From the sequence record NC_019500.1: 64,000 nt of DNA. The stretch is one strand, 5' to 3'. Both the position numbers and the translations under genes were made by a program. Shown piece by piece: positions 24,488 through 41,339 of the stretch (its first letter is position 1; each line of letters opens with the position of its first letter). Origin of the DNA: Escherichia phage Bp7. Under the pieces are notes generated by a model. That model was not told the origin of the DNA and did no database searches. It was given only the letters and a program-made list of their open reading frames with translations.

Positions 24488-24770
24488 TTTTGATGGAGCG
24501 GTTAATACCGCTTCCGAACCTGTCCATGTGCTCGTAAACAAACAACAGAACGGTCTTGATATTGAGGCCTTTGTTGAAGCTGAAGGTTGTAGCTATCTCG
24601 AAGCGGCTACCGCATGGTTGGAAGAGAACAGCATCCCTGAAGGTAACTTTGCTCGTTATTTGCCTGCAGGAATTATTGATAAAATTATGAACGAAGCCAT
24701 TGATGATAACTTGCTTCGACCTTCAATGGCTCGAACGCAAAAAACTAATACTCTGGATTTCTTGTTATGA
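24468..24770 (+). CDS. 33: gp33 late-transcription co-activator
   Basis: 100 aa between dsbA and 59; acidic with hydrophobic C-terminal tail. Confidence 0.65.
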   Translation: MTQSLNDFDGAVNTASEPVHVLVNKQQNGLDIEAFVEAEGCSYLEAATAWLEENSIPEGNFARYLPAGIIDKIMNEAIDDNLLRPSMARTQKTNTLDFLL

Positions 24771-25420
24771 TTAAGATTCGCATGCCACCAAACAATAACC
24801 GTATGGTGAACGGCAAAAGTGTATATTCCCTATATTTGATGTTAAAGCATCATTTCAACGCCAAATACGACGTTATCAAATACAACTGGGTCATGCGAAT
24901 CTCTGATACGGCTTATCAAAAACGTCGTGACAAATATTTCTTTGAGAAATTGAGTGATAAATACACTTTGAAAGAGCTTGCTCTTATATTCATGAGTAAC
25001 TTGGTAGCTAACCAAGACGCATGGATTGGCGACATCAGTGATGCTGACGCCTTAGTCTTTTACCGAGAATATATCGGTAGACTTAAAAGAATAAAACAAG
25101 TTTTTGAGGATGATATCAAAAACATTTATTATTTTAGTAAGAAAGTGGAAGTTCAAGCGCTTTCTGAAATTTTTGATTATAATAAAAAAGTTAACTCGAG
25201 CTATATTTTTAAGCTCCTTCAATCGAATGTTATTTCATTCGAAACGTTTATTTTGCTTGATTCATTTATGGATATAATTGATAAGCACGATGAAAAGACT
25301 AACGATTTAGTGTGGTCTAAGTATTCGACTAAATTAAATGCTTACAAAAAAATTCTTATAGTAGATTCTATTGAGGCTCGTAAATTGTTCATTGAAACAA
25401 TTAAGGGTTGTAAATTTTGA
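24767..25420 (+). CDS. 59: gp59 helicase-loading protein
   Basis: 217 aa (same as T4); KSVYSLYLM.K.H.N.KYDVIKYNW.MR.SD.AYQKRRDKYFF.KLS.KY.LKELALIF.SNLVANQDAWIGDISDADALVFYREYIGRLK almost identical to T4 gp59. Confidence 0.9.
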   Translation: MIKIRMPPNNNRMVNGKSVYSLYLMLKHHFNAKYDVIKYNWVMRISDTAYQKRRDKYFFEKLSDKYTLKELALIFMSNLVANQDAWIGDISDADALVFYREYIGRLKRIKQVFEDDIKNIYYFSKKVEVQALSEIFDYNKKVNSSYIFKLLQSNVISFETFILLDSFMDIIDKHDEKTNDLVWSKYSTKLNAYKKILIVDSIEARKLFIETIKGCKF

Positions 25421-26052
25421 ATATAGTTTATAAAATGACTTGGCTTAATCGTCAGGCTAATAATATTAAGCCGTTTTCGTACATAGGTTCTAAAACTAAT
25501 TGTACTTTTGAAAATGGCGTGATTATTGACTGTAAAGGTAAAGAGTATTGGACCTCTTGCGAGCAATCAAGATTTAAAGAGGCCATCGAAGAAGAAAAAC
25601 CTATTGTTGAAATTTTGGCTATAACGCCATTTGATATTGTTATTAATATTGAACGTTCAGAACAATTGGAAGTTCAAGCTAGAGATAATGATGATTATTT
25701 TAATTTGGTTTATGCCGGTGGCGGATTTGGAGTCTTTGGATGCACTCACCCAGCCAAACGTCCTGAAGTTAGAGCCCATATGAAAGCTGCTAACTATATG
25801 AATCAACCCGATTACCGTCCTTGGAAAACTTCTAGAGCAAACCCTTTAGATTGGATGCTTAGTGATATTGCTTATACTAATTATTGTATAATTAATTCTA
25901 GTGGAAGAGCTTGTGGATGGAGGCGTCTCATTAACTCTGGTATAAATGTTAGTGAAACTACATCAAAGAGTATGATTAAACAATTTAATGAGGGTTGGGT
26001 TCCTAATGATGACCCTGAATTCATTAAGTTAAAAATGCTTTATTCGAAGTGA
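25417..26052 (+). CDS. ORF at the segG position; possible degenerate GIY-YIG-type homing endonuclease (start TTG 25417 or ATG 25435)
   Basis: inserted between 59 and 32 where T4 carries segG; N-terminus IVYK...PFSYIGSKT loosely resembles GIY...YIG; overlaps gp59 stop. Confidence 0.4.
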   Translation: MNIVYKMTWLNRQANNIKPFSYIGSKTNCTFENGVIIDCKGKEYWTSCEQSRFKEAIEEEKPIVEILAITPFDIVINIERSEQLEVQARDNDDYFNLVYAGGGFGVFGCTHPAKRPEVRAHMKAANYMNQPDYRPWKTSRANPLDWMLSDIAYTNYCIINSSGRACGWRRLINSGINVSETTSKSMIKQFNEGWVPNDDPEFIKLKMLYSK

Positions 26053-26150
26053 TATATAATTACTTCATCTTCAAAACCTAGTTATCAAGGTAAACGTGAT
26101 AACAACAACTGTTAATAAATTTATTAAATATATCAAATAAGGTAAATAAT

Positions 26151-27062
26151 ATGTCTATGTTTAAACGCCGTAATCCTGCTGAACTTGCTGCTCAACTGTC
26201 TGCAATGAAAGGTGGCTCTTCTTTCTCGTCTGATGACAAATCCGAATGGAAATTGAAAGATGACAATGGCGTAGGAACCGCAGTTATTCGATTCCTTCCT
26301 TCGAAAAACGAAGCTAATCCATCCCCATTCGTTAAGCTTGTTAACCATGGTTTTAAGAAAAATGGTCAGTGGTATATCGAATCATGTACGTCTACTCATG
26401 GTGATTTCGATTCATGTCCTGTATGTAAATACATGAACCAGAATGATACCTTTAATACTAATAATGCCGAATACAAACTGATGAAACGTAAAACTTCCTT
26501 CTGGGCTAACATCCTTGTTATTAAGGATAGTGCAGTGCCTGCTAACGAAGGTAAAGTGTTTAAATTCCGTTTCGGTCAGAAAATTATGGATAAAATCAAC
26601 CAGATGGTTGAAGTTGATACTGATATTGGTGAAGTGCCGGTTGACGTAACATGTCCGTTTGATGGTGCGAACTTCGTACTGAAATCTAAGAAAGTTGGCG
26701 ACTTCAAAAACTACGACGATTCCAAATTCATGGGTCAGTCTGAAATTCCTAACATCAATGATGAAGCTTACCAAGCTAAATTGATGGAAGAAATGCACGA
26801 CCTTTCTAAACTGCTCGATTTCAAATCATTCGAAACTAACGAAGCCAAGTTTAAGAAAGTTGTTGGTACAGCTGCTCTTGGTGGTGCTGCCGCTAAAGCT
26901 TCTGCTGCCGCTGATAAGATTGGTGATGACCTGGACGCATTCAGTGCAGACCTTGATGCATATGATTCCAAACCGTCTACACCTGCTCGTTCCACCACTC
27001 CTGAGCCGTCAGTAAGTCCTTCTGATGACGATGGTCTGGACGACCTGTTAGCTGGTCTATAA
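26151..27062 (+). CDS. 32: gp32 single-stranded DNA-binding protein
   Basis: 303 aa; [65 protein letters not shown], acidic C-terminal tail. Confidence 0.9.
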
Positions 27063-27798: not shown

Positions 27799-27800
27799 GC

Positions 27801-27829
27801 GTTTACATCTGCTTTAAACATGATACTAT
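27801..27829 (+). promoter_or_regulatory. T4-type early promoter (third near-identical cassette copy)
   Basis: GTTTAC 27801-27806, TACTAT 27824-27829; 40/40 identical to 9433-9472. Confidence 0.6.
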
Positions 27830-27861
27830 AGACCTATCAACTAATGAGTGAGGAAAATAAA

Positions 27862-28089
27862 ATGGCTAAGGTTAATATTGATATCGTTGATTTTGAATAC
27901 ACTTACGAAGTTATCCGTAATCGTTATCCTTCTTTAGTTATGACCCATATTAAAGATACTCAATTCTGTAGTATGCAAATTGAAGTCCAAGGTCCTCTTG
28001 AAGACCTTACCCGCTTTATGGCTGACGAGTATTGTGACGGTATGCACCCGGAAGACGCTAAATTTTATACGGGCTTAATTCAAAAATAA
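27862..28089 (+). CDS. hypothetical protein (75 aa)
   Basis: ATG 27862 after leader ctaatgagtgaggaaaataaa; the 27844 ATG lies in the SD region and is rejected. Confidence 0.45.
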
Positions 28090-28123
28090 GTTTACACCAG
28101 GCTATGGTAGTGATACTATAGCC
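28090..28123 (+). promoter_or_regulatory. T4-type early promoter with 7-bp inverted repeat aggctat/atagcct around the -10
   Basis: GTTTAC 28090-28095, TACTAT 28114-28119. Confidence 0.55.
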
Positions 28124-28144
28124 TTATCAACTAAGGAGAATAAA

Positions 28145-29830
<1,686 letters not shown>

Positions 29831-29891
29831 AAATTCAAATAATCTGTACTCTGTTTTTGGTTATTATGGTTGGGCTGAATTTGGTGCTATA

Positions 29892-30185
29892 ATGAGAGTT
29901 TGCAGAGTTGTTAACAAGTATAAAGAAGACTTTGATGTCAATATCCAACGTGGAACTATGTGGGGTAATCCATTTAAAGTTGGAACCCGCGAGGAAAACA
30001 TCAAGAACTTTAAAGAATACTTTATTGCTAAAATAAAATCGGGCGAAATTAAAAGAGAACATCTTGAAACCCTTAGAGGTATGCGTATAGCGTGTACCTG
30101 TAAACCTAAGGACTGTCATGGGGATGTGATAGCCCTGGTTGTTAACAAACTTTTCAAAGACACGTTCTCATTAGAAGACCTATAA
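29892..30185 (+). CDS. small conserved protein (97 aa) with WGNPF and C-x-C...C-H motifs; nrdA.1/nrdA.2 position
   Basis: MRVCRVVNKY...GTMWGNPFKVG...MRIACTCKPKDCHGDVIALVV; start 29892 chosen from in-frame ATG. Confidence 0.45.
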   Translation: MRVCRVVNKYKEDFDVNIQRGTMWGNPFKVGTREENIKNFKEYFIAKIKSGEIKREHLETLRGMRIACTCKPKDCHGDVIALVVNKLFKDTFSLEDL

Positions 30186-30194
30186 ATATCAGTC

Positions 30195-30233
30195 CATGCT
30201 TAACAGGTTCTATGATAGAATAATTATAGAACC
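30195..30233 (+). promoter_or_regulatory. candidate MotA-dependent middle promoter for nrdA inside an 8-bp inverted repeat ggttctat/atagaacc
   Basis: MotA-box-like TGCTTAA 30197-30203, -10 TAGAAT 30216-30221 at 12-bp spacing; a TATAAATA late-promoter match also lies at 30181-30188. Confidence 0.4.
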
Positions 30234-30251
30234 TAACATATTGAGGAAATT

Positions 30252-32507
30252 ATGCAAGTACAAAAAAGTAGTGGTGTATCCCAAGATTTTGACGCACAAA
30301 AAATTATTAAAGTTCTGACTTGGGGCTGTGAAGGAACCCAAATCGACCCCTATGAATTATACGAAGAAATCAAATCCCATCTTCGTGACGGTATGACTAC
30401 CAAAGATATCCAAAATCTGACTGTTAAGGTAGCAGCCAACCTTATCTCGGTTGAAGAGCCTGATTACCAATATGTTGCTGCAAAAGAATTGATGTTTGCA
30501 CTGCGTAAAGAAGTTTATGGGCAGTTCGAACCACGTAGCTTTATCGACCATATTTCCTATTGTGTTAACGAAGGTAAATATGACCCTGAATTGTTGTCTC
30601 GATATTCTGCAGAAGAAATTACTTTCTTAGAATCTCATATAAAGCATGAACGCGATTTCGAATTGACTTATGCTGGTGCGATGCAGCTTAAAGAGAAATA
30701 TCTGGTTAAAGATAAAACAACCGGTAAAATCTACGAAACCCCTCAGTTCGCTATCATGTGTATTGGTATGGCCTTACACCAAGACGAGCCAGGTAATCGT
30801 TTAGCACATATTATTCGTTTTTATGATGCTGTAAGTACCCGTCAGGTTTCATTACCAACTCCTATTATGGCTGGAGCACGTACACCAACCCGTCAATTTA
30901 GTTCTTGTGTGGTTATTGAAGCAGGCGACTCACTGAAATCTATTAACAAAACTGCTAACTCAATAATTGAATACATTTCTAAACGTGCCGGTATTGGTAT
31001 CAACGTTGGTATGATTCGTGCTGAAGGTTCTCGTATTGGCATGGGCGAAGTCAAGCATACCGGTGTTATTCCATTCTGGAAACATTTCCAGACTGCTGTT
31101 AAATCATGTTCACAAGGTGGAATCCGTGGCGGCGCTGCTACTGCTTATTATCCTATTTGGCATTTGGAAGTTGAAAATCTGCTCGTTCTGAAAAACAACA
31201 AAGGTGTCGATGAGAACCGTATTCGCCATATGGACTACGGAATCCAGATGAACGACCTTATGATGGAACGTTTCGGTAAAAATGATTACATCACGTTGTT
31301 TAGTCCTCATGAAATGGGTGGTGAGCTTTACTATTCTTATTTCGAAGACCAAGACCGTTTCCGTGAATTGTATGAAGCCGCAGAAAAAGACCCTAGTATT
31401 CGTAAGAAACGTATTAAGGCACGCGACCTTTTCGAATTGTTCATGACTGAACGTTCAGGCACTGCACGAATTTATCCTCAGTTCGTTGATAACACTAACA
31501 ACTTCACACCATTTATTCGTGAAAAAGCTCCTATTCGTCAGAGCAACTTGTGTTGTGAAATTGCTATCCCGACTACTGACGTGAATAGTCCTGACGCTGA
31601 AATTGGTTTGTGTACGTTGTCTGCATTCGTATTGGATAACTTCGATTGGCAGGACCAAGACAAAATCAACGAGCTGGCTGAAGTACAAGTACGTGCACTT
31701 GATAACCTGTTGGACTATCAAGATTATCCTGTTCCTGAAGCTCTGAAGGCTAAGAAACGTCGTAACCTGGGTGTTGGTGTTACGAACTACGCCGCTTGGT
31801 TAGCAAGCAACTTTGCTTCTTATGAAGACGCTAACGATTTAACTCATGAATTGTTTGAGAGATTACAATATGGACTTATCCGAGCATCCATCAAGCTGGC
31901 CGAAGAAAAAGGACATTGCGAGTATTATTCAGACACTAAATGGTCTCGAGGCGAATTACCTATCGACTGGTACAATAAAAAGATTGACCAAATCGCAGCC
32001 CCTAACTATGTTTGTGACTGGACGTCGTTGCGGGAAGACTTGGCTAAACATGGCATCCGTAATAGCACATTATCAGCACTTATGCCGTGTGAATCAAGCA
32101 GCCAGGTTTCCAACTCTACAAACGGTATCGAACCTCCACGTGGTCCGGTAAGTATTAAAGAATCTAAAGAAGGTAACTTCCGTCAGGTAGTTCCTAATGT
32201 AGAACATAACCAAGGACTCTACGATTACGCTTGGAGCCTCGCTAAGAAAGGTAATAAACCTTATCTTACCCAAGTGGCAATAGCGTTGAAATGGGTGTGT
32301 CAATCGGCATCAGCTAATACATATTATGACCCACAGATTTTTCCAAAAGGAAAAGTTCCGATGTCGGTAATGCTTGATGACCTGCTGTATTTCTGGTACT
32401 ACGGTGGTAAGAACCTTTACTATCATAATACCCGTGATGGCTCTGGTACTGATGACTATGAAATCGAAACTCCTAAAGCCGATGATTGTGCAGCTTGTAA
32501 GCTTTAA
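30252..32507 (+). CDS. nrdA: ribonucleotide reductase large subunit
   Basis: 751 aa; N-terminal ATP-cone, class Ia catalytic motifs (NLCCEI, C-terminal Cys pair CAACKL). Confidence 0.9.
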   Translation: MQVQKSSGVSQDFDAQKIIKVLTWGCEGTQIDPYELYEEIKSHLRDGMTTKDIQNLTVKVAANLISVEEPDYQYVAAKELMFALRKEVYGQFEPRSFIDHISYCVNEGKYDPELLSRYSAEEITFLESHIKHERDFELTYAGAMQLKEKYLVKDKTTGKIYETPQFAIMCIGMALHQDEPGNRLAHIIRFYDAVSTRQVSLPTPIMAGARTPTRQFSSCVVIEAGDSLKSINKTANSIIEYISKRAGIGINVGMIRAEGSRIGMGEVKHTGVIPFWKHFQTAVKSCSQGGIRGGAATAYYPIWHLEVENLLVLKNNKGVDENRIRHMDYGIQMNDLMMERFGKNDYITLFSPHEMGGELYYSYFEDQDRFRELYEAAEKDPSIRKKRIKARDLFELFMTERSGTARIYPQFVDNTNNFTPFIREKAPIRQSNLCCEIAIPTTDVNSPDAEIGLCTLSAFVLDNFDWQDQDKINELAEVQVRALDNLLDYQDYPVPEALKAKKRRNLGVGVTNYAAWLASNFASYEDANDLTHELFERLQYGLIRASIKLAEEKGHCEYYSDTKWSRGELPIDWYNKKIDQIAAPNYVCDWTSLREDLAKHGIRNSTLSALMPCESSSQVSNSTNGIEPPRGPVSIKESKEGNFRQVVPNVEHNQGLYDYAWSLAKKGNKPYLTQVAIALKWVCQSASANTYYDPQIFPKGKVPMSVMLDDLLYFWYYGGKNLYYHNTRDGSGTDDYEIETPKADDCAACKL

Positions 32508-32561
32508 TAAAATCCGATTATAATTGACTCACGGATGAGTCACTAACAAAATGAGAATAAT

Positions 32562-33236
32562 ATGTCTACAGTTTTTAATACTACCCCAGTTGATGTTTTA
32601 GTCGAGCCGATGTTCTTTGGTTCAGGATTAGGTATCGCCCGTTATGATATCCAACGTCATAAAGTGTTCGAAGAGCTTTGTGAAAAGCAACTATCATTTT
32701 TCTGGCGTCCAGAGGAAGTTAACTTGATGATGGACTCTGCGCAGTTAATAAGCTTCCAGAGTTCCAACAAAATATATTTACCAATAACTTGAAATATCAG
32801 TCGCTTTTGGACAGTATTCAGGGCCGGGCTCCTTCTGCTGCACTCCAAGCCTTGATTTCTGACCCTAGCCTTGATACATGGGTGGCAACATGGACCTTTA
32901 GTGAAACTATTCACTCGCGTTCGTATACCCATATCATGCGTAACCTCTATACAGACCCATCTAAGGTATTTGATGAAATTCTGTTAGATGACGCTATCAT
33001 GAAGCGCGCTGAATCCATTGGTCGTTATTATGATGACGTTATTGAGAAAACTAGATATTGGCAGAATGCTAAAGCTGATATTGAGTACCAAAAAGAAATT
33101 AACGCAGACGAAGATGATATTGAAGATGCCATAGAGCATGAGATGTATTGGAAACGTGAACTGATGCGTTCTCTTTATCTCTGTTTGCATGTTATCAATG
33201 CCTTAGAAGCTATTCGTTTTTATGTATCTTTTGCGT
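32562..33236 (+). CDS. nrdB: ribonucleotide reductase small subunit, exon 1; apparent 1-nt frameshift near 32723-32750 (ORFs 32562..32792 and 32789..33238)
   Basis: N-terminus ...FFWRPEEV in one frame; downstream NrdB motifs [35 protein letters not shown] in the -1 frame; exon ends with U at 33236. Confidence 0.8.
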
Positions 33237-33320
33237 AAAATGCGCCTTTAAACGGTAACGTTTATCGAAAACTCCTTTAATTGCTGGAAAGTCCTTTATA
33301 GGAAAACTAGCAGCCAAGGT

Positions 33321-33354
33321 TTTGCTTGCACCTTTAATTAGTATAATATAAATA
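33321..33354 (+). promoter_or_regulatory. candidate middle (MotA-box-like + TATAAT) and late (TATAAATA) promoters upstream of the intron endonuclease ORF
   Basis: tttgcttgca 33321-33330, TATAAT 33342-33347, TATAAATA 33347-33354, SD aagagga 33367-33373. Confidence 0.35.
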
Positions 33355-33381
33355 TGATTATACTTTTAAGAGGATGCACAA

Positions 33382-34188
33382 TTGAACTATAGAAAAATTT
33401 GGATAGATGCTAACGGACCTATACCTAAAGATTCTGATGGAAGAACATACGAAATCCATCATAAAGACGGTAACCGTGAAAATAATGATTTAGATAATTT
33501 GATGTGCCTTTCTATACAGGAACATTATGATATACATTTAGCTCAAAAAGATTACCAGGCTTGTCATGCTATAAAGCTTAGAATGAAATATTCTCCTGAA
33601 GAAATTTCTGAATTAGCTTCTAAAGCCGCAAAATCTAGAGAAATCCAGATTTTTAATATCCCTGAAGTACGAGCTAAAAATATTGCCTCTATTAAATCTA
33701 AGATAGAAAATGGTACATTTCATCTTTTAGACGGTGAAATACAGCGTAAATCTAATTTAAATAGAGTTGCATTAGGTATACATAATTTCTCTAGAGGAGC
33801 CCATGCAAAAGTTAAAGAACGCAATATTGCAGCTATAAAAGAAGGTACTCATGTATTTTGCGGTGGTAAAATGCAGTCAGAAACTCAATCAAAACGGGTA
33901 AATGACGGTTCACATCATTTCTTGTCAGAAGACCATAAGAAAAGAACATCAGCAAAAACATTAGAAATGGTTAAGAACGGGACCCATCCTGCACAAAAAG
34001 AAATCACATGTGATTTCTGCGGTCACATTGGTAAAGGTCCTGGATTTTATCTAAAACATAATGACAGATGTAAATTAAATCCAAATAGAATTCAATTGAA
34101 TTGTCCATATTGTGATAAGAAAGATTTATCACCATCAACATATAAACGATGGCACGGCGACAATTGCAAAGCAAGGTTCAACGACTAG
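33382..34188 (+). CDS. HNH-family homing endonuclease (I-TevIII-like), intron-encoded; apparent TTG start
   Basis: 268 aa; N-terminal HNH motif EIHHKDGNRENNDLDNLMCLS..EH and C-terminal Cys/His-rich region (CDFCGH, CPYCDK); lies in the nrdB intron as I-TevIII does. Confidence 0.8.
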   Translation: MNYRKIWIDANGPIPKDSDGRTYEIHHKDGNRENNDLDNLMCLSIQEHYDIHLAQKDYQACHAIKLRMKYSPEEISELASKAAKSREIQIFNIPEVRAKNIASIKSKIENGTFHLLDGEIQRKSNLNRVALGIHNFSRGAHAKVKERNIAAIKEGTHVFCGGKMQSETQSKRVNDGSHHFLSEDHKKRTSAKTLEMVKNGTHPAQKEITCDFCGHIGKGPGFYLKHNDRCKLNPNRIQLNCPYCDKKDLSPSTYKRWHGDNCKARFND

Positions 34189-34324
34189 TCTTCGGACGTA
34201 GGGTCAAGCGACTCGAAATGGGGAGAATCCCTCTGGGATTGTGATATAGTCTGGTCTGCATAGTAATATGTAGCAGTTCATAAGAGAACGGGTTGAGAAT
34301 TAGCGAGCTCAATCGAACATAACG

Positions 34325-34827
34325 GTACCTTTAACTTCCATAAGAACATGGAAATCATGGAAGGTAATGCTAAGATTATGAAGTTCATTGCACGTGATGA
34401 ACAGCTCCACCTTAAAGGCACCCAGTACATTATTCGTCAGCTCCAACTTGGTACTGATGGCGACGAATGGGTTAAAATTGCTCAAGAGTGCGAACAAGAA
34501 GCAGTTGATATTTTCATGGAAGTTAACCGTCAAGAAAAAGAATGGGCCGCTCACCTGTTCAAAGATGGTACTTGCCCTGGATTAAATACTCAGAACATGG
34601 GTGCTTTTGTCGATTACCTGACAGTTTCTCGTATGAAGCAATGTGGCTTACCGTGTCCTATTACTGATGCTCCTACTCGCCATCCTTATCCTTGGATTCG
34701 CGAATACCTGAACTCTGATGCTGTACAGGCTGCTCCTCAGGAAGTGGAAATCAGTTCTTACCTTGTAGCACAAATTGATAACGATGTTGATGAAAAAGTA
34801 ATGGCATCGTACAAGAAATATTTTTAA
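34325..34827 (+). CDS. nrdB: ribonucleotide reductase small subunit, exon 2
   Basis: ELMEGNAKI...ARDE.LHL.GTQ...C-terminal APQEVE.SSYLV.QID; in frame after splicing. Confidence 0.8.
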
Positions 34828-34830
34828 GGA

Positions 34831-35268
34831 ATGGGGCTTCGGCCCCTTATTGCTATGAAAGAAATCGCAGACGAATTTAGCTTTATCAAGTACGTCACCC
34901 TAGAACTCCAAGATGACGCCACCATAGCTCCACTCACAGTACCAAATAAACAAAATGTCATATATGCTATAGCGGTTGATGATATACTAGTCTACGTTGG
35001 GAAGACTAAAAATCTTCGTAAGCGCATCAACTACTACCGAACCGCTATTAATCGTAAGGACCAAACGTCGGATTCGACTAAGTCCATTCTGATTCATGAA
35101 GCATTAATGGCTGGTAAAAAGGTAGAGTTCTATGCACGGCAGTGCTTTAATCTGTCGATGACTAACGAACTTGGAACTATGTCAGTTGAGACCATGTCTC
35201 TTGAAGAGCCAATGTTCATAAAGAAATTTAATCCACCTTGGAATACCCAACACCGATTAAAAGGATAA
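34831..35268 (+). CDS. denA: endonuclease II (GIY-YIG family); start 34831 or ATG 34855
   Basis: 145-aa ORF with GIY-YIG-like core VIYAIAVDDILVYVGKT...RKRINYY; position between nrdB and rnlA. Confidence 0.7.
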   Translation: MGLRPLIAMKEIADEFSFIKYVTLELQDDATIAPLTVPNKQNVIYAIAVDDILVYVGKTKNLRKRINYYRTAINRKDQTSDSTKSILIHEALMAGKKVEFYARQCFNLSMTNELGTMSVETMSLEEPMFIKKFNPPWNTQHRLKG

Positions 35269-35272
35269 AGCA

Positions 35273-36421
35273 ATGATTGAATTATATGATAACTTGATGG
35301 CCCTGGTTAAAAACTCGACTAAATCTAAGTTCTTCTTTAAAGACTTTCAGAGTGCGCTAGGAGTCAACTATCGCATCTTTAGTTATAACTATGCCTCGTA
35401 CAGTGATTGGTTGGAAGACGGCGCGCTAGAGGGCCGAGGCATTATGTTTGAAATGGACGAGAACGGTCCAGTACGTATTGCTGCTCGTCCTATGCAAAAG
35501 TTCTTTAACCTTGACGAAAACCCTCTGACCATCGGTCTAGATTTGTCACCAGAAAATATTGACCTCGTAATGGCTAAGGAAGATGGTTCTCTGATTTCTA
35601 CATTCATGGACCGACAGTATCTTTCTGTTAAATCTAAAGGCTCTATCCATTCATCAATGGTGCATGATTCTTTACGGTTCCTTCGTCTCCCTGAGAACGA
35701 GGCTTTTGCCGCACGTCTAGAAGAAATCACCAAAGCTGGGTATACCTGCAACCTTGAATATGTAGCACCTACCAACCGTATCGTTCTGGCTTACCAAGAA
35801 ACAAACCTCATCCTGTTGAACGTTCGTAATAATGAAACAGGTGAATATATTCCGTATGCTGAATTGTTTAAAGATGGTGCCCTGCGTAAGCATTTGGTTG
35901 AAAGCTATGACCTCGCTGAAGGTGATTTCGTAGAAAACATCCGTAAACAAGAAGGTATTGAAGGTTTCATCTTTGTACTGAAAGATGGTACGTTCTTTAA
36001 ACTCAAAACCGCCTGGTACAGTGCACTGCACCATACCAAAGATTCCATTAACAATAACGAACGTTTGTTTGAAGTTGTAGTGGCTGGTGGAACTGATGAC
36101 CTTCGTGGATTGTTCAGTACAGATTCGTTTGCTATCGAGAAAATCGATGCCTTTGAACGTATCCATTTAGATTACTTAGAACAATCATTAGCCTTGTTAG
36201 AAGCAGCGTACTCCCAACTTAAGGGTCGCGACCGTAAGGACTACGCCGTTACTGGTCAACTAATCCTTAAGGACTTTCCAGGGTTGTTCTCTATTCTTAT
36301 GCAGGCGTACGTAGGCGGCATTAATTATGATACGGTCATGGACCAGATTAACTCTGTGTTCTTGAAAAACCATAAAGCCCAAATCCCTGAAAAATATTTG
36401 AAAGAAATTGTGGTAGAGTAG
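35273..36421 (+). CDS. rnlA: RNA ligase 1
   Basis: 382 aa; YRIFSYNYASYSDW, GIMFEMD, RPM.KFFNL.ENP, FVAPTNRIVLAYQE, LLNVRNNETGEYI match T4 Rnl1 (gp63). Confidence 0.9.
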   Translation: MIELYDNLMALVKNSTKSKFFFKDFQSALGVNYRIFSYNYASYSDWLEDGALEGRGIMFEMDENGPVRIAARPMQKFFNLDENPLTIGLDLSPENIDLVMAKEDGSLISTFMDRQYLSVKSKGSIHSSMVHDSLRFLRLPENEAFAARLEEITKAGYTCNLEYVAPTNRIVLAYQETNLILLNVRNNETGEYIPYAELFKDGALRKHLVESYDLAEGDFVENIRKQEGIEGFIFVLKDGTFFKLKTAWYSALHHTKDSINNNERLFEVVVAGGTDDLRGLFSTDSFAIEKIDAFERIHLDYLEQSLALLEAAYSQLKGRDRKDYAVTGQLILKDFPGLFSILMQAYVGGINYDTVMDQINSVFLKNHKAQIPEKYLKEIVVE

Positions 36422-36473
36422 TTTACATCTCCTCATGATGTGTTAGTATAGACTTACCAACTAATGAGGAGAA
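36421..36473 (+). promoter_or_regulatory. PeSL-like early promoter with 9-bp inverted repeat tctcctcat/atgaggaga that includes the alc SD
   Basis: GTTTAC 36421-36426, TAGTAT 36444-36449; arms 36428-36436 and 36465-36473. Confidence 0.55.
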
Positions 36474-36479
36474 AACAAA

Positions 36480-36980
36480 ATGAATATGCAAATGATTACT
36501 AACGAAATGGTTGTTAAGGCTTTTGGTGACTCTACCGACGGTATCCAAGTTTTTAAAGGTTCTCGTGCAGTAGGTTACCTGACCGATCTTCGTGTTACTT
36601 TAGCTAAAAATGCTAAAAAGAAAATCAAGCAAAAAGAATACTCTACCCGTTACGCTGAAGAAAAGCGTGAAGCCATGCCCGAAGCTGTTAACTCTATGGT
36701 TGAGTTTCTCCGAAACAACCTTTCCAAGTATGATGCTGAGGTGTTCATTAATATTAGCCAACCTAATGTTAAAATCTCAGGCATCACTTTCTATTTGATT
36801 TGTGACCCATTAAGCGACAAGTTTAATCGCCTTGGCATTTCAAGTCCTTACCATACCGCTGAAGAATTGTGTTTTATGTTCGAAACGTACAAAATTCAGT
36901 GCGAAAATCCTAAAACGGTTCTTATTAATTCCCTGTCACGTGATGACATCATCGAGATTATTACCAAATGTCTAAATTAA
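36480..36980 (+). CDS. alc: probable Alc (transcription-unfolding protein); assignment by synteny and size only
   Basis: 166 aa (T4 Alc 167 aa) between rnlA and the spanin pair. Confidence 0.45.
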   Translation: MNMQMITNEMVVKAFGDSTDGIQVFKGSRAVGYLTDLRVTLAKNAKKKIKQKEYSTRYAEEKREAMPEAVNSMVEFLRNNLSKYDAEVFINISQPNVKISGITFYLICDPLSDKFNRLGISSPYHTAEELCFMFETYKIQCENPKTVLINSLSRDDIIEIITKCLN

Positions 36981-40525: not shown

Positions 40526-41067
40526 AAGCAAGCACATACCTTCAGATTGCATATCTGATTTCTCAGGAATCAAAATGTTGTTCATGGAAAGTGGGCGCGG
40601 TTATTGAAAAGAATGGCCGCATTATTTCTACAGGGTATAACGGTTCACCATCCGGTGGTGTTAACTGTTGTGACCACGCTGTGGAACAAGACTGGACCCG
40701 TGTTGTGTATGACCCAGCGCGGATGTCGCACAAATCCGTTCTTCTTAAAGAACACCGTATGGCTCATGCAGCATGGTCATCCAAAAATGAAATCCATGCT
40801 GAACTGAATGCCATTTTGTTTGCAGCTCGTACCGGAAGTTCTATTGACGGCGCTACGATGTACGTGACGTTATCTCCATGTGCAGATTGTGCTAAGTCTA
40901 TTGCGCAGTCTGGAATTAAAACATTGGTTTATGCTGAGCTATATGACCGAAATCCTGAAGGATGGGACGATATCCTCCGTGAATCAGGCATAGAAGTTAT
41001 CCAGTATAATCGTACAGGTCTCCGTTCTCTGAACTGGGAATCAATTCAAAACTATTGTGGTGAATAA
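40522..41067 (+). CDS. cd: dCMP deaminase
   Basis: 181 aa; zinc-binding deaminase motifs HAE...NAI and SPCADCAK; characteristic ISTGYNGSPSG. Confidence 0.85.
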   Translation: MKASTYLQIAYLISQESKCCSWKVGAVIEKNGRIISTGYNGSPSGGVNCCDHAVEQDWTRVVYDPARMSHKSVLLKEHRMAHAAWSSKNEIHAELNAILFAARTGSSIDGATMYVTLSPCADCAKSIAQSGIKTLVYAELYDRNPEGWDDILRESGIEVIQYNRTGLRSLNWESIQNYCGE

Positions 41068-41339
41068 TGAAATTTCGTCTAGTTAAATTTTCAGGTCTGA
41101 ACTCAAAAGGTGAAAGCTTAGTAGCCTATTCAGTAGAATATAAAAAGTACTTTTTCTCTCGATGGAAATCGTACTATAAATCTGATTGGGTTTATGCCAA
41201 CATGAATTACAAAACAGTACCTATTCTTGATAATTGCCATAGCCTATTAAGAGCTCTAAAAGAGCGTAACGCAACCACTATCAAAACTATCTGGAATAAT
41301 TATGATTTTAACCGAACAAGAAACAATTCGTCTCCGTGA
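41067..41339 (+). CDS. hypothetical protein (90 aa)
   Basis: ATGA overlap with cd. Confidence 0.4.
   Translation: MKFRLVKFSGLNSKGESLVAYSVEYKKYFFSRWKSYYKSDWVYANMNYKTVPILDNCHSLLRALKERNATTIKTIWNNYDFNRTRNNSSP

Follow-up and report, generated by a model that had tools for sequence, protein, structure and literature searches.

A full-length I-TevIII intron of the RB3 type in nrdB of a Dhakavirus-type phage genome

The nrdB gene of Escherichia phage Bp7 is interrupted by 1088 nt within the 64,000-nt stretch of record NC_019500.1 that was analysed here (the window), which raises the question of what this insert is and how it came to lie in a genome of this type. The element itself is already known, being the published RB3-type I-TevIII intron (X59078; KM606994; Eddy & Gold 1991; Robbins et al. 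2007, PMC1865063), and the new part is the Dhakavirus genome that hosts it. The insert is 99.1–99.2% identical to the nrdB intron of RB3, RB5-10, G2469 and JK45, and 83 records span 80% or more of its length. We regard it as very probable that the whole of 33237-34324 is explained as an RB3-type T-even nrdB group I intron with I-TevIII that is spliced, self-regulated and recently homed. The features on which this reading is built are collected in Table 1.

Table 1. Features of the nrdB intron and its surroundings (positions in the window)
Feature	Position	Strand	Basis or remark
td	28970..29830	+	uninterrupted, 286 aa; ORF list and thymidylate synthase profile
nrdB exon 1	32562..33236	+	674 nt present, 675 nt expected
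1-nt deletion, TTT to TT	32744..32745	+	T present in 6/6 comparison phages
Donor-type tract, candidate co-conversion	33184..33235	+	spans I-TevIII cut site
P1	33233..33245	+	exon GCGU (33233-33236) with intron GCGC (33242-33245); 4/4 pairs standard
Group I intron	33237..34324	+	1088 nt
P2 hairpin	33249..33264	+	6 bp, GUAA loop
P3 5' strand; P6 5' strand	33272-33277; 33313-33315	+	all pairs standard
P4	33282-33287 with 33307-33312	+	complete; standard pairs; recovered in minimum-energy fold
P5	33292-33303	+	complete; standard pairs; recovered in minimum-energy fold
Homing-site mimic, putative I-TevIII operator	33320..33339	+	includes MotA-box-like TGCTT
MotA-box-like TGCTT	33323-33327	+	sequence
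RNA hairpin, Shine-Dalgarno (33368-33374) with 33327-33335	33327..33378	+	RNA fold
TATAAT (-10, middle promoter)	33342-33347	+	sequence
TATAAATA (late promoter)	33347-33354	+	sequence; overlaps TATAAT
Shine-Dalgarno AAGAGGA	33368-33374	+	sequence
I-TevIII gene	33382..34188	+	TTG start, 268 aa, HNH domain and two zinc fingers
In-frame replacement in I-TevIII	33789..33803	+	10 substitutions and 3-nt deletion
Catalytic core 3' half	34175..34251	+	helix pairing, minimum-energy fold, covariation
P6'; P3'; P8	34175-34177; 34220-34225; 34226-34240	+	core 3' half
P7; P7.1; P7.2	34183-34187 with 34247-34251; 34188-34197; 34201-34214	+	core 3' half
P9 (GUAA loop); P9.1; P9.2	34256-34273; 34276-34289; 34291-34314	+	compensatory changes, ten introns
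nrdB exon 2	34325..34827	+	Pfam Ribonuc_red_sm match

The splice junction and the intron RNA

Both ends of the intron can be read directly from the sequence. T33236 (..TTTGCGT) is the last base of exon 1, the intron opens with AAAATGCGCC at 33237 and closes with ..CATAACG at G34324, and exon 2 opens with GTACCTTTAAC at 34325. T33236 and the GT at 34325-34326 make up a Cys codon from which NrdB runs on as CTFNFHK, and ligation restores the frame at the junction. The interruption, the rebuilt Cys codon and the terminal G thus all stand where the original prediction had placed them. It had also described td as intron-free; the single td frame spans the whole thymidylate synthase profile (E=1.6e-98), and the Dhakavirus relatives likewise have td without an intron.

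All 12 helices checked form proper pairs (P6a in a corrected register), with a U33236-G33242 wobble in P1 at the 5' splice site, and the core helices P1-P9 are formable throughout, whereas the original prediction had named failure to fold into a group I core as the outcome that would speak for a plain gene insertion. The minimum-energy fold of the ORF-deleted RNA yields P1, P4, P5, P7, P7.2, P8 and P9. Covariation was assessed for the 3' half of the core in a set made up of the window intron and nine other phage group I introns, in which the 34 pairs of that half are 96.7% paired against 31-42% with slid partners; compensatory changes are seen in 22 of the 34 pairs, a level that none of 500 shuffles reached. 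P7, within which the I-TevIII stop TAG (34186-34188) falls, is invariant and for this reason uninformative for covariation. Outside the ORF (33237-33381 and 34189-34324) there are zero differences from RB3, and the window intron, with its non-ORF RNA 100% identical to an intron described as self-splicing (PMC2988022), would be expected to splice itself as well. The designation of the insert as a group I intron of nrdB is in this way well founded.

In the covariance-model search proposed with the original prediction, RF00028 aligned P7, P3', P8 and P9 on 34033-34273 (E=1.3e-6), but at 34 bits the hit falls below the gathering score of 50, and no Rfam match was obtained at gathering threshold over the whole window. 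In the controls the RB3 and T4 nrdB introns scored 34.0 and 35.7 bits and the td introns were missed altogether, and the miss at gathering threshold is therefore not counted as a negative. An ORF-less Staphylococcus intron reached 87 bits for the same model; it is the ORF in P6 that causes the threshold failure.

Related introns are of two degrees of distance. The td intron of T4 and RB3 (I-TevI) is of the same structural class, which we take to be IA2, and has P7, P7.1, P7.2, P8 and P9 in common with the window intron, with compensatory changes. Introns of Staphylococcus Twort-like, Bacillus, Klebsiella and Pseudomonas phages and of Lactococcus Tuc2009 share the same helices and are 70-80% identical in the 3' catalytic half, but they interrupt different host genes, carry different endonuclease genes or none, and are distant relatives only.

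The I-TevIII gene and its expression signals

An in-frame TAA at 33367-33369 lies upstream of the intron ORF and the TTG at 33382 is the first start codon past it. The next Met in frame, residue 41, comes after His26/His27, so that this TTG is the sole start that keeps the HNH motif, and the same start is annotated for RB3 in X59078 and KM606994, all of which bears out the UUG start that had been considered probable. Numbered from it, H26, H27, N39 and H48 are all present, the four residues at which Ala mutants lost cleavage (PMC1865063). Two CX2CX12-13HX3C fingers begin at C210 and C241, which are C211 and C242 of RB3 minus a one-residue deletion; the zinc fingers of I-TevIII are required for DNA binding and dimerisation (PMC1865063). 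The ORF matches Pfam HNH_3 (E=5.9e-13), and its residues 1-268 align to positions 1-269 of PHROG 12324, 'intron-like DNA endonuclease' (E=1e-189), in keeping with the full-length HNH endonuclease of the original prediction. By its sequence, the ORF at 33382-34188 is I-TevIII, and the variant encoded here may be active.

The nearest characterised copies show what is shared and what differs. RB3 has the same FYVSFA/C insertion site, promoter, Shine-Dalgarno, TTG start, and HNH and zinc-finger residues, but its host is a Tequatrovirus and its I-TevIII has 269 aa, the 268 aa in the window being due to the replacement at 33789-33803; the window genome also differs in being without mobE upstream and without a td intron. 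The T4 nrdB intron (598 nt) occupies the same site with the same RNA core, and over window positions 33237-33449 shows a single difference, the A at 33300 being missing in T4. Its I-TevIII is defective, however: T4 is without about 33455-33927 of the window, the proximal half of the ORF, and its intron is immobile by itself (PMC2988022), whereas the window copy is full-length.

The intron ORF had been credited with middle and late promoter signals of its own and a Shine-Dalgarno, and these are located as described. Since TATAAATA by itself is not above chance (9 occurrences in the window against 7.5 expected), the promoter call rests on identity to T4 and RB3: T4 does not differ from the window over 33301-33449, the stretch that holds these signals, and primer extension in T4 has mapped middle and late promoters for its intron ORFs (PMC2988022). 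The T4 scheme places a MotA box some 12 bp ahead of a -10 element and adds a late promoter, and TGCTT, TATAAT and TATAAATA follow one another in that order here. A sigma-70 scan of the + strand called no promoter for the intron ORF, which is no surprise given that the middle and late promoters of T4 are built differently from sigma-70 -35/-10 promoters. RNA of 33316-33400 folds at -17.9 kcal/mol (z=-4.07) with the Shine-Dalgarno paired, while RNA beginning at 33355 is unstructured (-1 kcal/mol, z=+0.5). This behaviour matches the published translational control of intron ORFs, in which only the longer transcripts form a hairpin that ties up the ribosome-binding site (PMC2988022). The segment 33320-33339 shares 17 of its 20 bases with the spliced exon junction, TTTTGCGT/GTACCTTTAACT, and is the sole match with at most 3 mismatches in 64 kb (0.01 expected); following the operator proposed for such homing-site-like sequences (PMC2988022), it may serve as a putative I-TevIII operator. 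The td intron follows the same expression logic, its late promoter lying within a hairpin that masks the ribosome-binding site and a homing-site-like operator being present as well, but it interrupts another gene and its I-TevI is a GIY-YIG monomer cutting 23 and 25 nt upstream, as against the HNH enzyme I-TevIII.

In the mechanism that we propose, the I-TevIII gene would be looped out of P6 of the RB3-type intron while the nrdB pre-mRNA folds to the P1-P9 core together with P7.1/P7.2 and P9.1/P9.2, and self-excision would join U33236 to G34325. On early read-through transcripts I-TevIII would be silent because the hairpin holds the Shine-Dalgarno. Transcripts from the middle and late promoters (about 33342-33354) would begin inside the hairpin, which would leave the ribosome-binding site free and make translation from UUG 33382 possible.

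Origin of the intron in a Dhakavirus backbone

The genome backbone is of the Dhakavirus type (97.4% to QL01), and the best relative covers 87% of 27800-36500, that is, all but the intron. Every well-aligning Dhakavirus record is intron-less (QL01, WG01, IME540, JS10, MX01 and the JS98 type). Away from the junction the exons are mostly about 45-90% identical to RB3 and G2469, against 95-100% to Dhakaviruses. Next to the insertion site, on the other hand, eight positions (33184, 33185, 33187, 33193, 33199, 33202, 33205 and 33235) carry the RB3/G2469 base, which is seen in none of four Dhakaviruses, with 33190 and 33196 inside the tract remaining Dhakavirus-type. The tract lies over the I-TevIII cut site, the positions of which were taken from PMC1865063, and so points to recent homing, in which repair off an intron-bearing genome would bring in the intron and a short piece of the adjoining donor exon. 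On the downstream side no strictly donor-specific site occurs before 34371. A search of database phages for the exact donor of the exon-intron junction gave a best match of only 95.7%, and the donor would therefore be unsampled. The most likely history is a recent gain of the intron in a co-infection with a Tequatrovirus or Mosigvirus.

The same result could in principle have come about without an I-TevIII cut, by ordinary homologous recombination or by homing in trans through an enzyme such as MobE, whose nick at nt 122-126 of nrdB makes the T4 nrdB intron mobile in trans. Divergence that is mostly synonymous marks a patch at about 32660-32830, which does begin near the MobE target and implies that the 5' part of nrdB was exchanged at some time. 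There is no mobE here, however, the nrdA-nrdB spacer being 54 nt, and published MobE-driven events convert the whole 5' region along with the intron. Exon sequence of about 32830-33169, which is Dhakavirus-type and IME540-like, separates the patch from the donor tract. The tract, at least 52 bp long and with the I-TevIII cut site at its centre, thus records a short event of its own, and the patch at about 32660-32830 is a second, older mosaic patch. We accordingly give transfer by recombination or MobE a low probability. Introns are patchily distributed among T-even phages and precise loss is possible in principle, so that the intron might be ancestral in this lineage and lost in the other Dhakaviruses. 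That all the well-aligning records are intron-less, that donor-type exon bases hug the insertion site, and that the intron is 99.2% identical to RB3/G2469 while the exons away from the junction side with the Dhakaviruses, makes such a history very improbable. An inactivating insertion of a plain endonuclease gene would agree with the empty Rfam search at gathering threshold, but this applies equally to the established RB3 and T4 nrdB introns (34-36 bits) and to the missed td introns, and the helices, the covariation and an RNA core 100% identical to RB3 argue for a functional ribozyme; we find this reading barely credible.

A frameshift in exon 1 and an altered segment of I-TevIII

The locus has two oddities. 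One, missed in the original prediction, is a frameshift about 490 nt upstream of the intron. Exon 1 can be aligned with nrdB of six phages (QL01, WG01, IME540, JS10, RB3 and G2469), and relative to them the deletion after 32744 leads to a stop at 32790-32792 and truncates NrdB at residue 76, the ORF list showing nrdB broken into 32562-32792 and 32789-33238. As written nrdB is frameshifted, and splicing alone would therefore not give NrdB. With one T put back the spliced product has 392 aa and equals QL01 NrdB at 389 of 393 positions, stop included. The deletion, at nt 183, does not coincide with the MobE nick site, although a single divergent patch contains or borders the two. An IMG/VR search with the frameshifted exon sequence found nothing.

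The frameshift may be an error of sequencing or a genuine lesion. If it is real, nrdB would be a true pseudogene, with a selfish intron and its endonuclease residing in a dead gene and the host ribonucleotide reductase being used. The truncation, the presence of the deletion in none of the six comparison phages and the lack of a visible recoding signal (programmed frameshifting or transcriptional slippage at 32744 was rejected, with no X_XXY_YYZ heptamer and no long A/T run) would agree with this. Yet the rest of nrdB is intact, and of the codon differences from QL01 in the patch around the deletion 20 are synonymous and just 2 non-synonymous, so that any inactivation would be very recent. What was lost is one T from a T run, and a second T-run loss at 41289 changes another small ORF; the two losses together fit a homopolymer sequencing error. 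A pseudogene is possible but in our judgement rather unlikely.

The other oddity is the replacement at 33789-33803, by which NFQQAEHIAKV has become NFSRGAHAKV (QQAEHI to SRGAH) at residues 136-141, between both domains of I-TevIII. Compared with RB3 the protein otherwise differs only by D23Y, which is common to G2469. The 15-nt replacement is unique, 0 of 83 database I-TevIII copies carrying it: it is absent from 78 phage records by DNA search and from 83 by protein search, it was found neither in IMG/VR nor in a metagenome contig scan, and the exact protein has no entry in the exact-protein index. It lies N-terminal to the region spanned by the 145C construct of I-TevIII, which is still DNA-binding. 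The denA sequence TCTCTTGAAGAGCCAATG at 35197-35214 was considered as a template and dismissed, the match at 15 of 18 positions (about 0.04 expected by chance, on our own estimate) being too imperfect for a template switch. Nor, by inspection, could the altered segment be derived from the original sequence by a simple inversion or by paired frameshifts.

That both oddities are real, with a working endonuclease in a freshly frameshifted nrdB and a natural I-TevIII variant with a rebuilt inter-domain segment, we consider unlikely. If true, the change of QQAEHI to SRGAH, one residue shorter, could alter the spacing from binding to cutting site, or could adapt I-TevIII to the Dhakavirus homing site.

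For annotation, nrdB is to be joined across the intron and I-TevIII starts at TTG, while the exon 1 frameshift needs a read check before nrdB is called a pseudogene. The nrdB intron is a textbook element, biochemically characterised from 1991 to 2007 and known from 83 or more sequenced phages. The present copy is of modest value, in that it preserves in clean form a natural case of homing between phage genera. This would be the first Dhakavirus-type genome in these collections with the I-TevIII intron, and if our reading is true it documents the homing of that intron from one phage genus to another.

An RB3-type intron in nrdB

The element that interrupts nrdB in Bp7 is an already known one, the RB3-type nrdB intron with I-TevIII, which was described, proven mobile and biochemically dissected earlier (PMC1865063), and for which PMC2988022 also cites Eddy & Gold 1991. 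The original prediction of an nrdB intron with a full-length endonuclease is supported, though it contains nothing new. The nrdB introns of RB3, RB5-RB10, vB_EcoM_G2469, JK45 and many other phages are 99.1–99.2% identical to the 1088 nt in the window, and 83 of the 127 matching records span 80% or more of the query, the internal ORF being labelled I-TevIII or 'intron-associated endonuclease 3'. The T4 nrdB intron is a deleted version that covers 56% of the query. When the boundaries were read from the sequence, the predicted coordinates proved correct: exon 1 ends at T33236 (..TTTGCGT), the intron starts with AAAATGCGCC and ends in ..CATAACG with G34324 as its last base, and exon 2 starts at 34325 with GTACCTTTAAC. 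The Cys codon of FYVSFAC is rebuilt from T+GT as had been proposed, the frame continuing as TFNFHKNMEIMEG, and td is indeed free of introns, its single 286-aa frame spanning the entire thymidylate synthase profile.

Features of the nrdB intron and neighbouring loci in the window
Feature	Coordinates	Strand	Match or sequence
Gene 59	24767-25420		
211-aa ORF, TTG start	25417-26052	+	PHROG 7504 'homing endonuclease', end to end, E=9e-114
Gene 32	26151-27062		
td	28970-29830		
139-aa ORF between td and nrdA	29766-30185	+	DUF4326, E=1.7e-21
nrdB intron	33237-34324		
MotA-box-like element	33323-33327		TGCTT
TATAAT element	33342-33347		TATAAT
Late promoter element	33347-33354		TATAAATA
Shine-Dalgarno sequence	33368-33374		AAGAGGA
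I-TevIII ORF, 268 aa	33382-34188		PHROG 12324 'intron-like DNA endonuclease', end to end, E=1e-189
denA	34831-35268		
rnlA	35273-36421		

The 211-aa ORF, flanked by genes 59 and 32, sits where T4 has its free-standing endonuclease segG and is without counterpart in the Dhakavirus QL01, to which window 25419-26103 is unaligned. The 139-aa ORF shares 65 nt with the end of td and corresponds to the Dhakavirus 'NrdA.1' ORF, not to nrdA.1 or nrdA.2 of T4. An 8-nt insertion relative to QL01 (35253-35261) lies at the junction of denA and rnlA, which are apart in the window and overlap in QL01.

The group I core

No match was found in an Rfam search of the whole window at the gathering threshold. At a permissive threshold, the group I model RF00028 aligned to 34033-34273 with 34 bits (E=1.3e-6) and P7, P3', P8 and P9 in their correct places. 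The RB3 and T4 nrdB introns, both proven, scored 34.0 and 35.7 bits and also fall below the gathering threshold; the experimentally proven td introns of these two phages were not detected even at E≤0.01, and a Staphylococcus phage intron without an ORF scored 87 bits. The nrdB score is low because the ORF, which is looped out of P6, breaks the model in two. Since RF00028 misses the td introns and scores the nrdB introns below threshold, this standard model systematically overlooks phage introns whose P6 contains an ORF.

Direct inspection of the helices showed standard pairs in all of P1 (with U33236-G33242), P2 (GUAA loop), P3, P4, P5, P6, P6a (in a corrected register), P7, P7.1 (UUCG loop), P7.2, P8 and P9 (GUAA loop). 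Unconstrained minimum-energy folding of a 285-nt ORF-deleted construct recovered P1, P4, P5, P7, P7.2, P8 and P9; a nested fold cannot hold both P3 and P7, which cross. The 3' half of the intron (34180-34324) has recognisable homologues in the RB3 td intron and in group I introns from phages of Klebsiella, Staphylococcus, Salmonella, Pseudomonas, Clostridioides and Bacillus. Across these ten aligned sequences, the 34 pairs in P7, P7.1, P7.2, P8, P9, P9.1 and P9.2 were paired in 96.7% of cases versus 31–42% with the partners slid, compensatory changes occurred in 22 of them, and none of 500 shuffles reached the observed values. Pairing and covariation therefore exclude, to the limit of computation, a plain gene insertion without a group I core.

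I-TevIII and its expression signals

The 268-aa ORF and its TTG start were correctly predicted, this codon being the first possible start after an in-frame TAA (33367-33369). The next Met is residue 41, past the first two catalytic histidines, and the identical TTG opens I-TevIII in the annotation of RB3 entries X59078 and KM606994. The biochemical numbering of H26, H27, N39, H48, C211/C214 and C242/C245 agrees with this start. All these residues are kept, in accordance with the proposed HNH motif and Cys/His-rich C-terminus, with the zinc fingers offset by one residue relative to the published numbering.

Compared with RB3, the intron has no differences outside the ORF (33237-33381 and 34189-34324), and the ORF holds one substitution and one 15-nt patch (33789-33803) with ten substitutions and a 3-nt deletion, the gene being otherwise identical. 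The patch alters NFQQAEHIAKV to NFSRGAHAKV and keeps the frame. In the protein it falls after the HNH domain and before the minimal DNA-binding domain, and it is N-terminal to construct 145C, which retains DNA binding. None of the phage-collection matches (78 by DNA, 83 by protein) had the patch, it was not found in IMG/VR or a metagenome scan, and the exact 268-aa protein is not on record. A near-match search of the window found no template. The sole other near match, denA 35197-35214 (TCTCTTGAAGAGCCAATG), equals the patch (TCTCTAGAGGAGCCCATG) at 15 of 18 positions; this is probably coincidence, the chance expectation being about 0.04 by our own estimate. The ORF is intact, and because of the unique patch we only infer that the endonuclease is active.

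The expression signals were correctly located in the original prediction. The late element occurs 9 times in the window versus 7.5 expected, which is chance frequency, and the promoter assignment must consequently depend on homology. Window 33301-33449 is identical to T4, where primer extension placed middle and late promoters of three intron ORFs and where a hairpin sequestering the ribosome-binding site was described (PMC2988022). For RNA 33316-33400 a fold of -17.9 kcal/mol (z=-4.07) is predicted, in which AAGAGGA pairs with 33327-33335; in RNA from 33355, the start expected from the intron's own promoters, the predicted hairpin is gone (-1 kcal/mol, z=+0.5). Neither the TTG start nor the promoter arrangement is new. 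The 20-mer at 33320-33339 shares 17 of its 20 positions with the spliced homing site TTTTGCGT|GTACCTTTAACT, the sole such match in 64 kb (0.01 expected). By its sequence it is a candidate operator, in line with an earlier proposal that an autorepression operator overlaps the promoter (PMC2988022).

The nrdB exons and probable acquisition of the intron

Exon 1 is short of one T after 32744 (CAGTTTAATAAG to CAGTTAATAAG), which is present in all six comparison phages, and NrdB as written stops after 76 residues. No frameshifting signal was found at the site. With the T restored and the intron spliced out, NrdB has 392 aa and equals that of QL01 at 389 of 393 positions, stop included. Relative to QL01, a T run at 41289 is likewise one T shorter (TATTCTGG to TATCTGG), by which a small 31.2-like ORF (41067-41339) grows from 77 to 90 aa and overlaps the next ORF. 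Given this second loss, a homopolymer sequencing error is no less likely than a real lesion in nrdB, and the two changes, being of the same kind, hint at homopolymer errors in the assembly.

The deletion falls within a patch of about 170 nt (32660-32830, nrdB nt ~100-270) whose best match among 940 phage records is only 82–90% identical, and its flanks are 95–100% identical to Dhakaviruses. Relative to QL01, 20 codons differ synonymously and 2 non-synonymously; three of these are fully recoded (CAA CTA TCA vs CAG TTG AGT) and lie a few nt past the MobE nick site, which was mapped to nt 122-126 of T2 nrdB. From its sequence the patch looks like an older gene conversion from an unsampled lineage.

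The window has a Dhakavirus backbone: QL01, IME540 and WG01 are 96.7–97.4% identical over 27800-36500 and cover 87% of it, all but the intron, and both nrdB and td are intron-free in these phages. The intron is 99% identical to the copies in RB3 and G2469, and away from the junction exon identity to these phages is mostly ~45–90%. Among four Dhakaviruses and two intron-bearing phages, eight window bases within 33184-33235 were found only in the intron-bearing phages, in a donor-type tract broken by two Dhakavirus-type bases (33190 and 33196). Upstream of 33169, exon 1 is Dhakavirus-type and closest to IME540; downstream of the intron the first Dhakavirus-specific base is 34371. An exact match to the exon-intron junction was absent from the database phages (best 95.7%). 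What is new is limited to the host genus, the co-conversion scar and two unexplained sequence oddities. Co-conversion of flanking exon sequence is a hallmark of homing (PMC2988022), and the intron is best read as a recent gain by homing from a Tequatrovirus or Mosigvirus donor.
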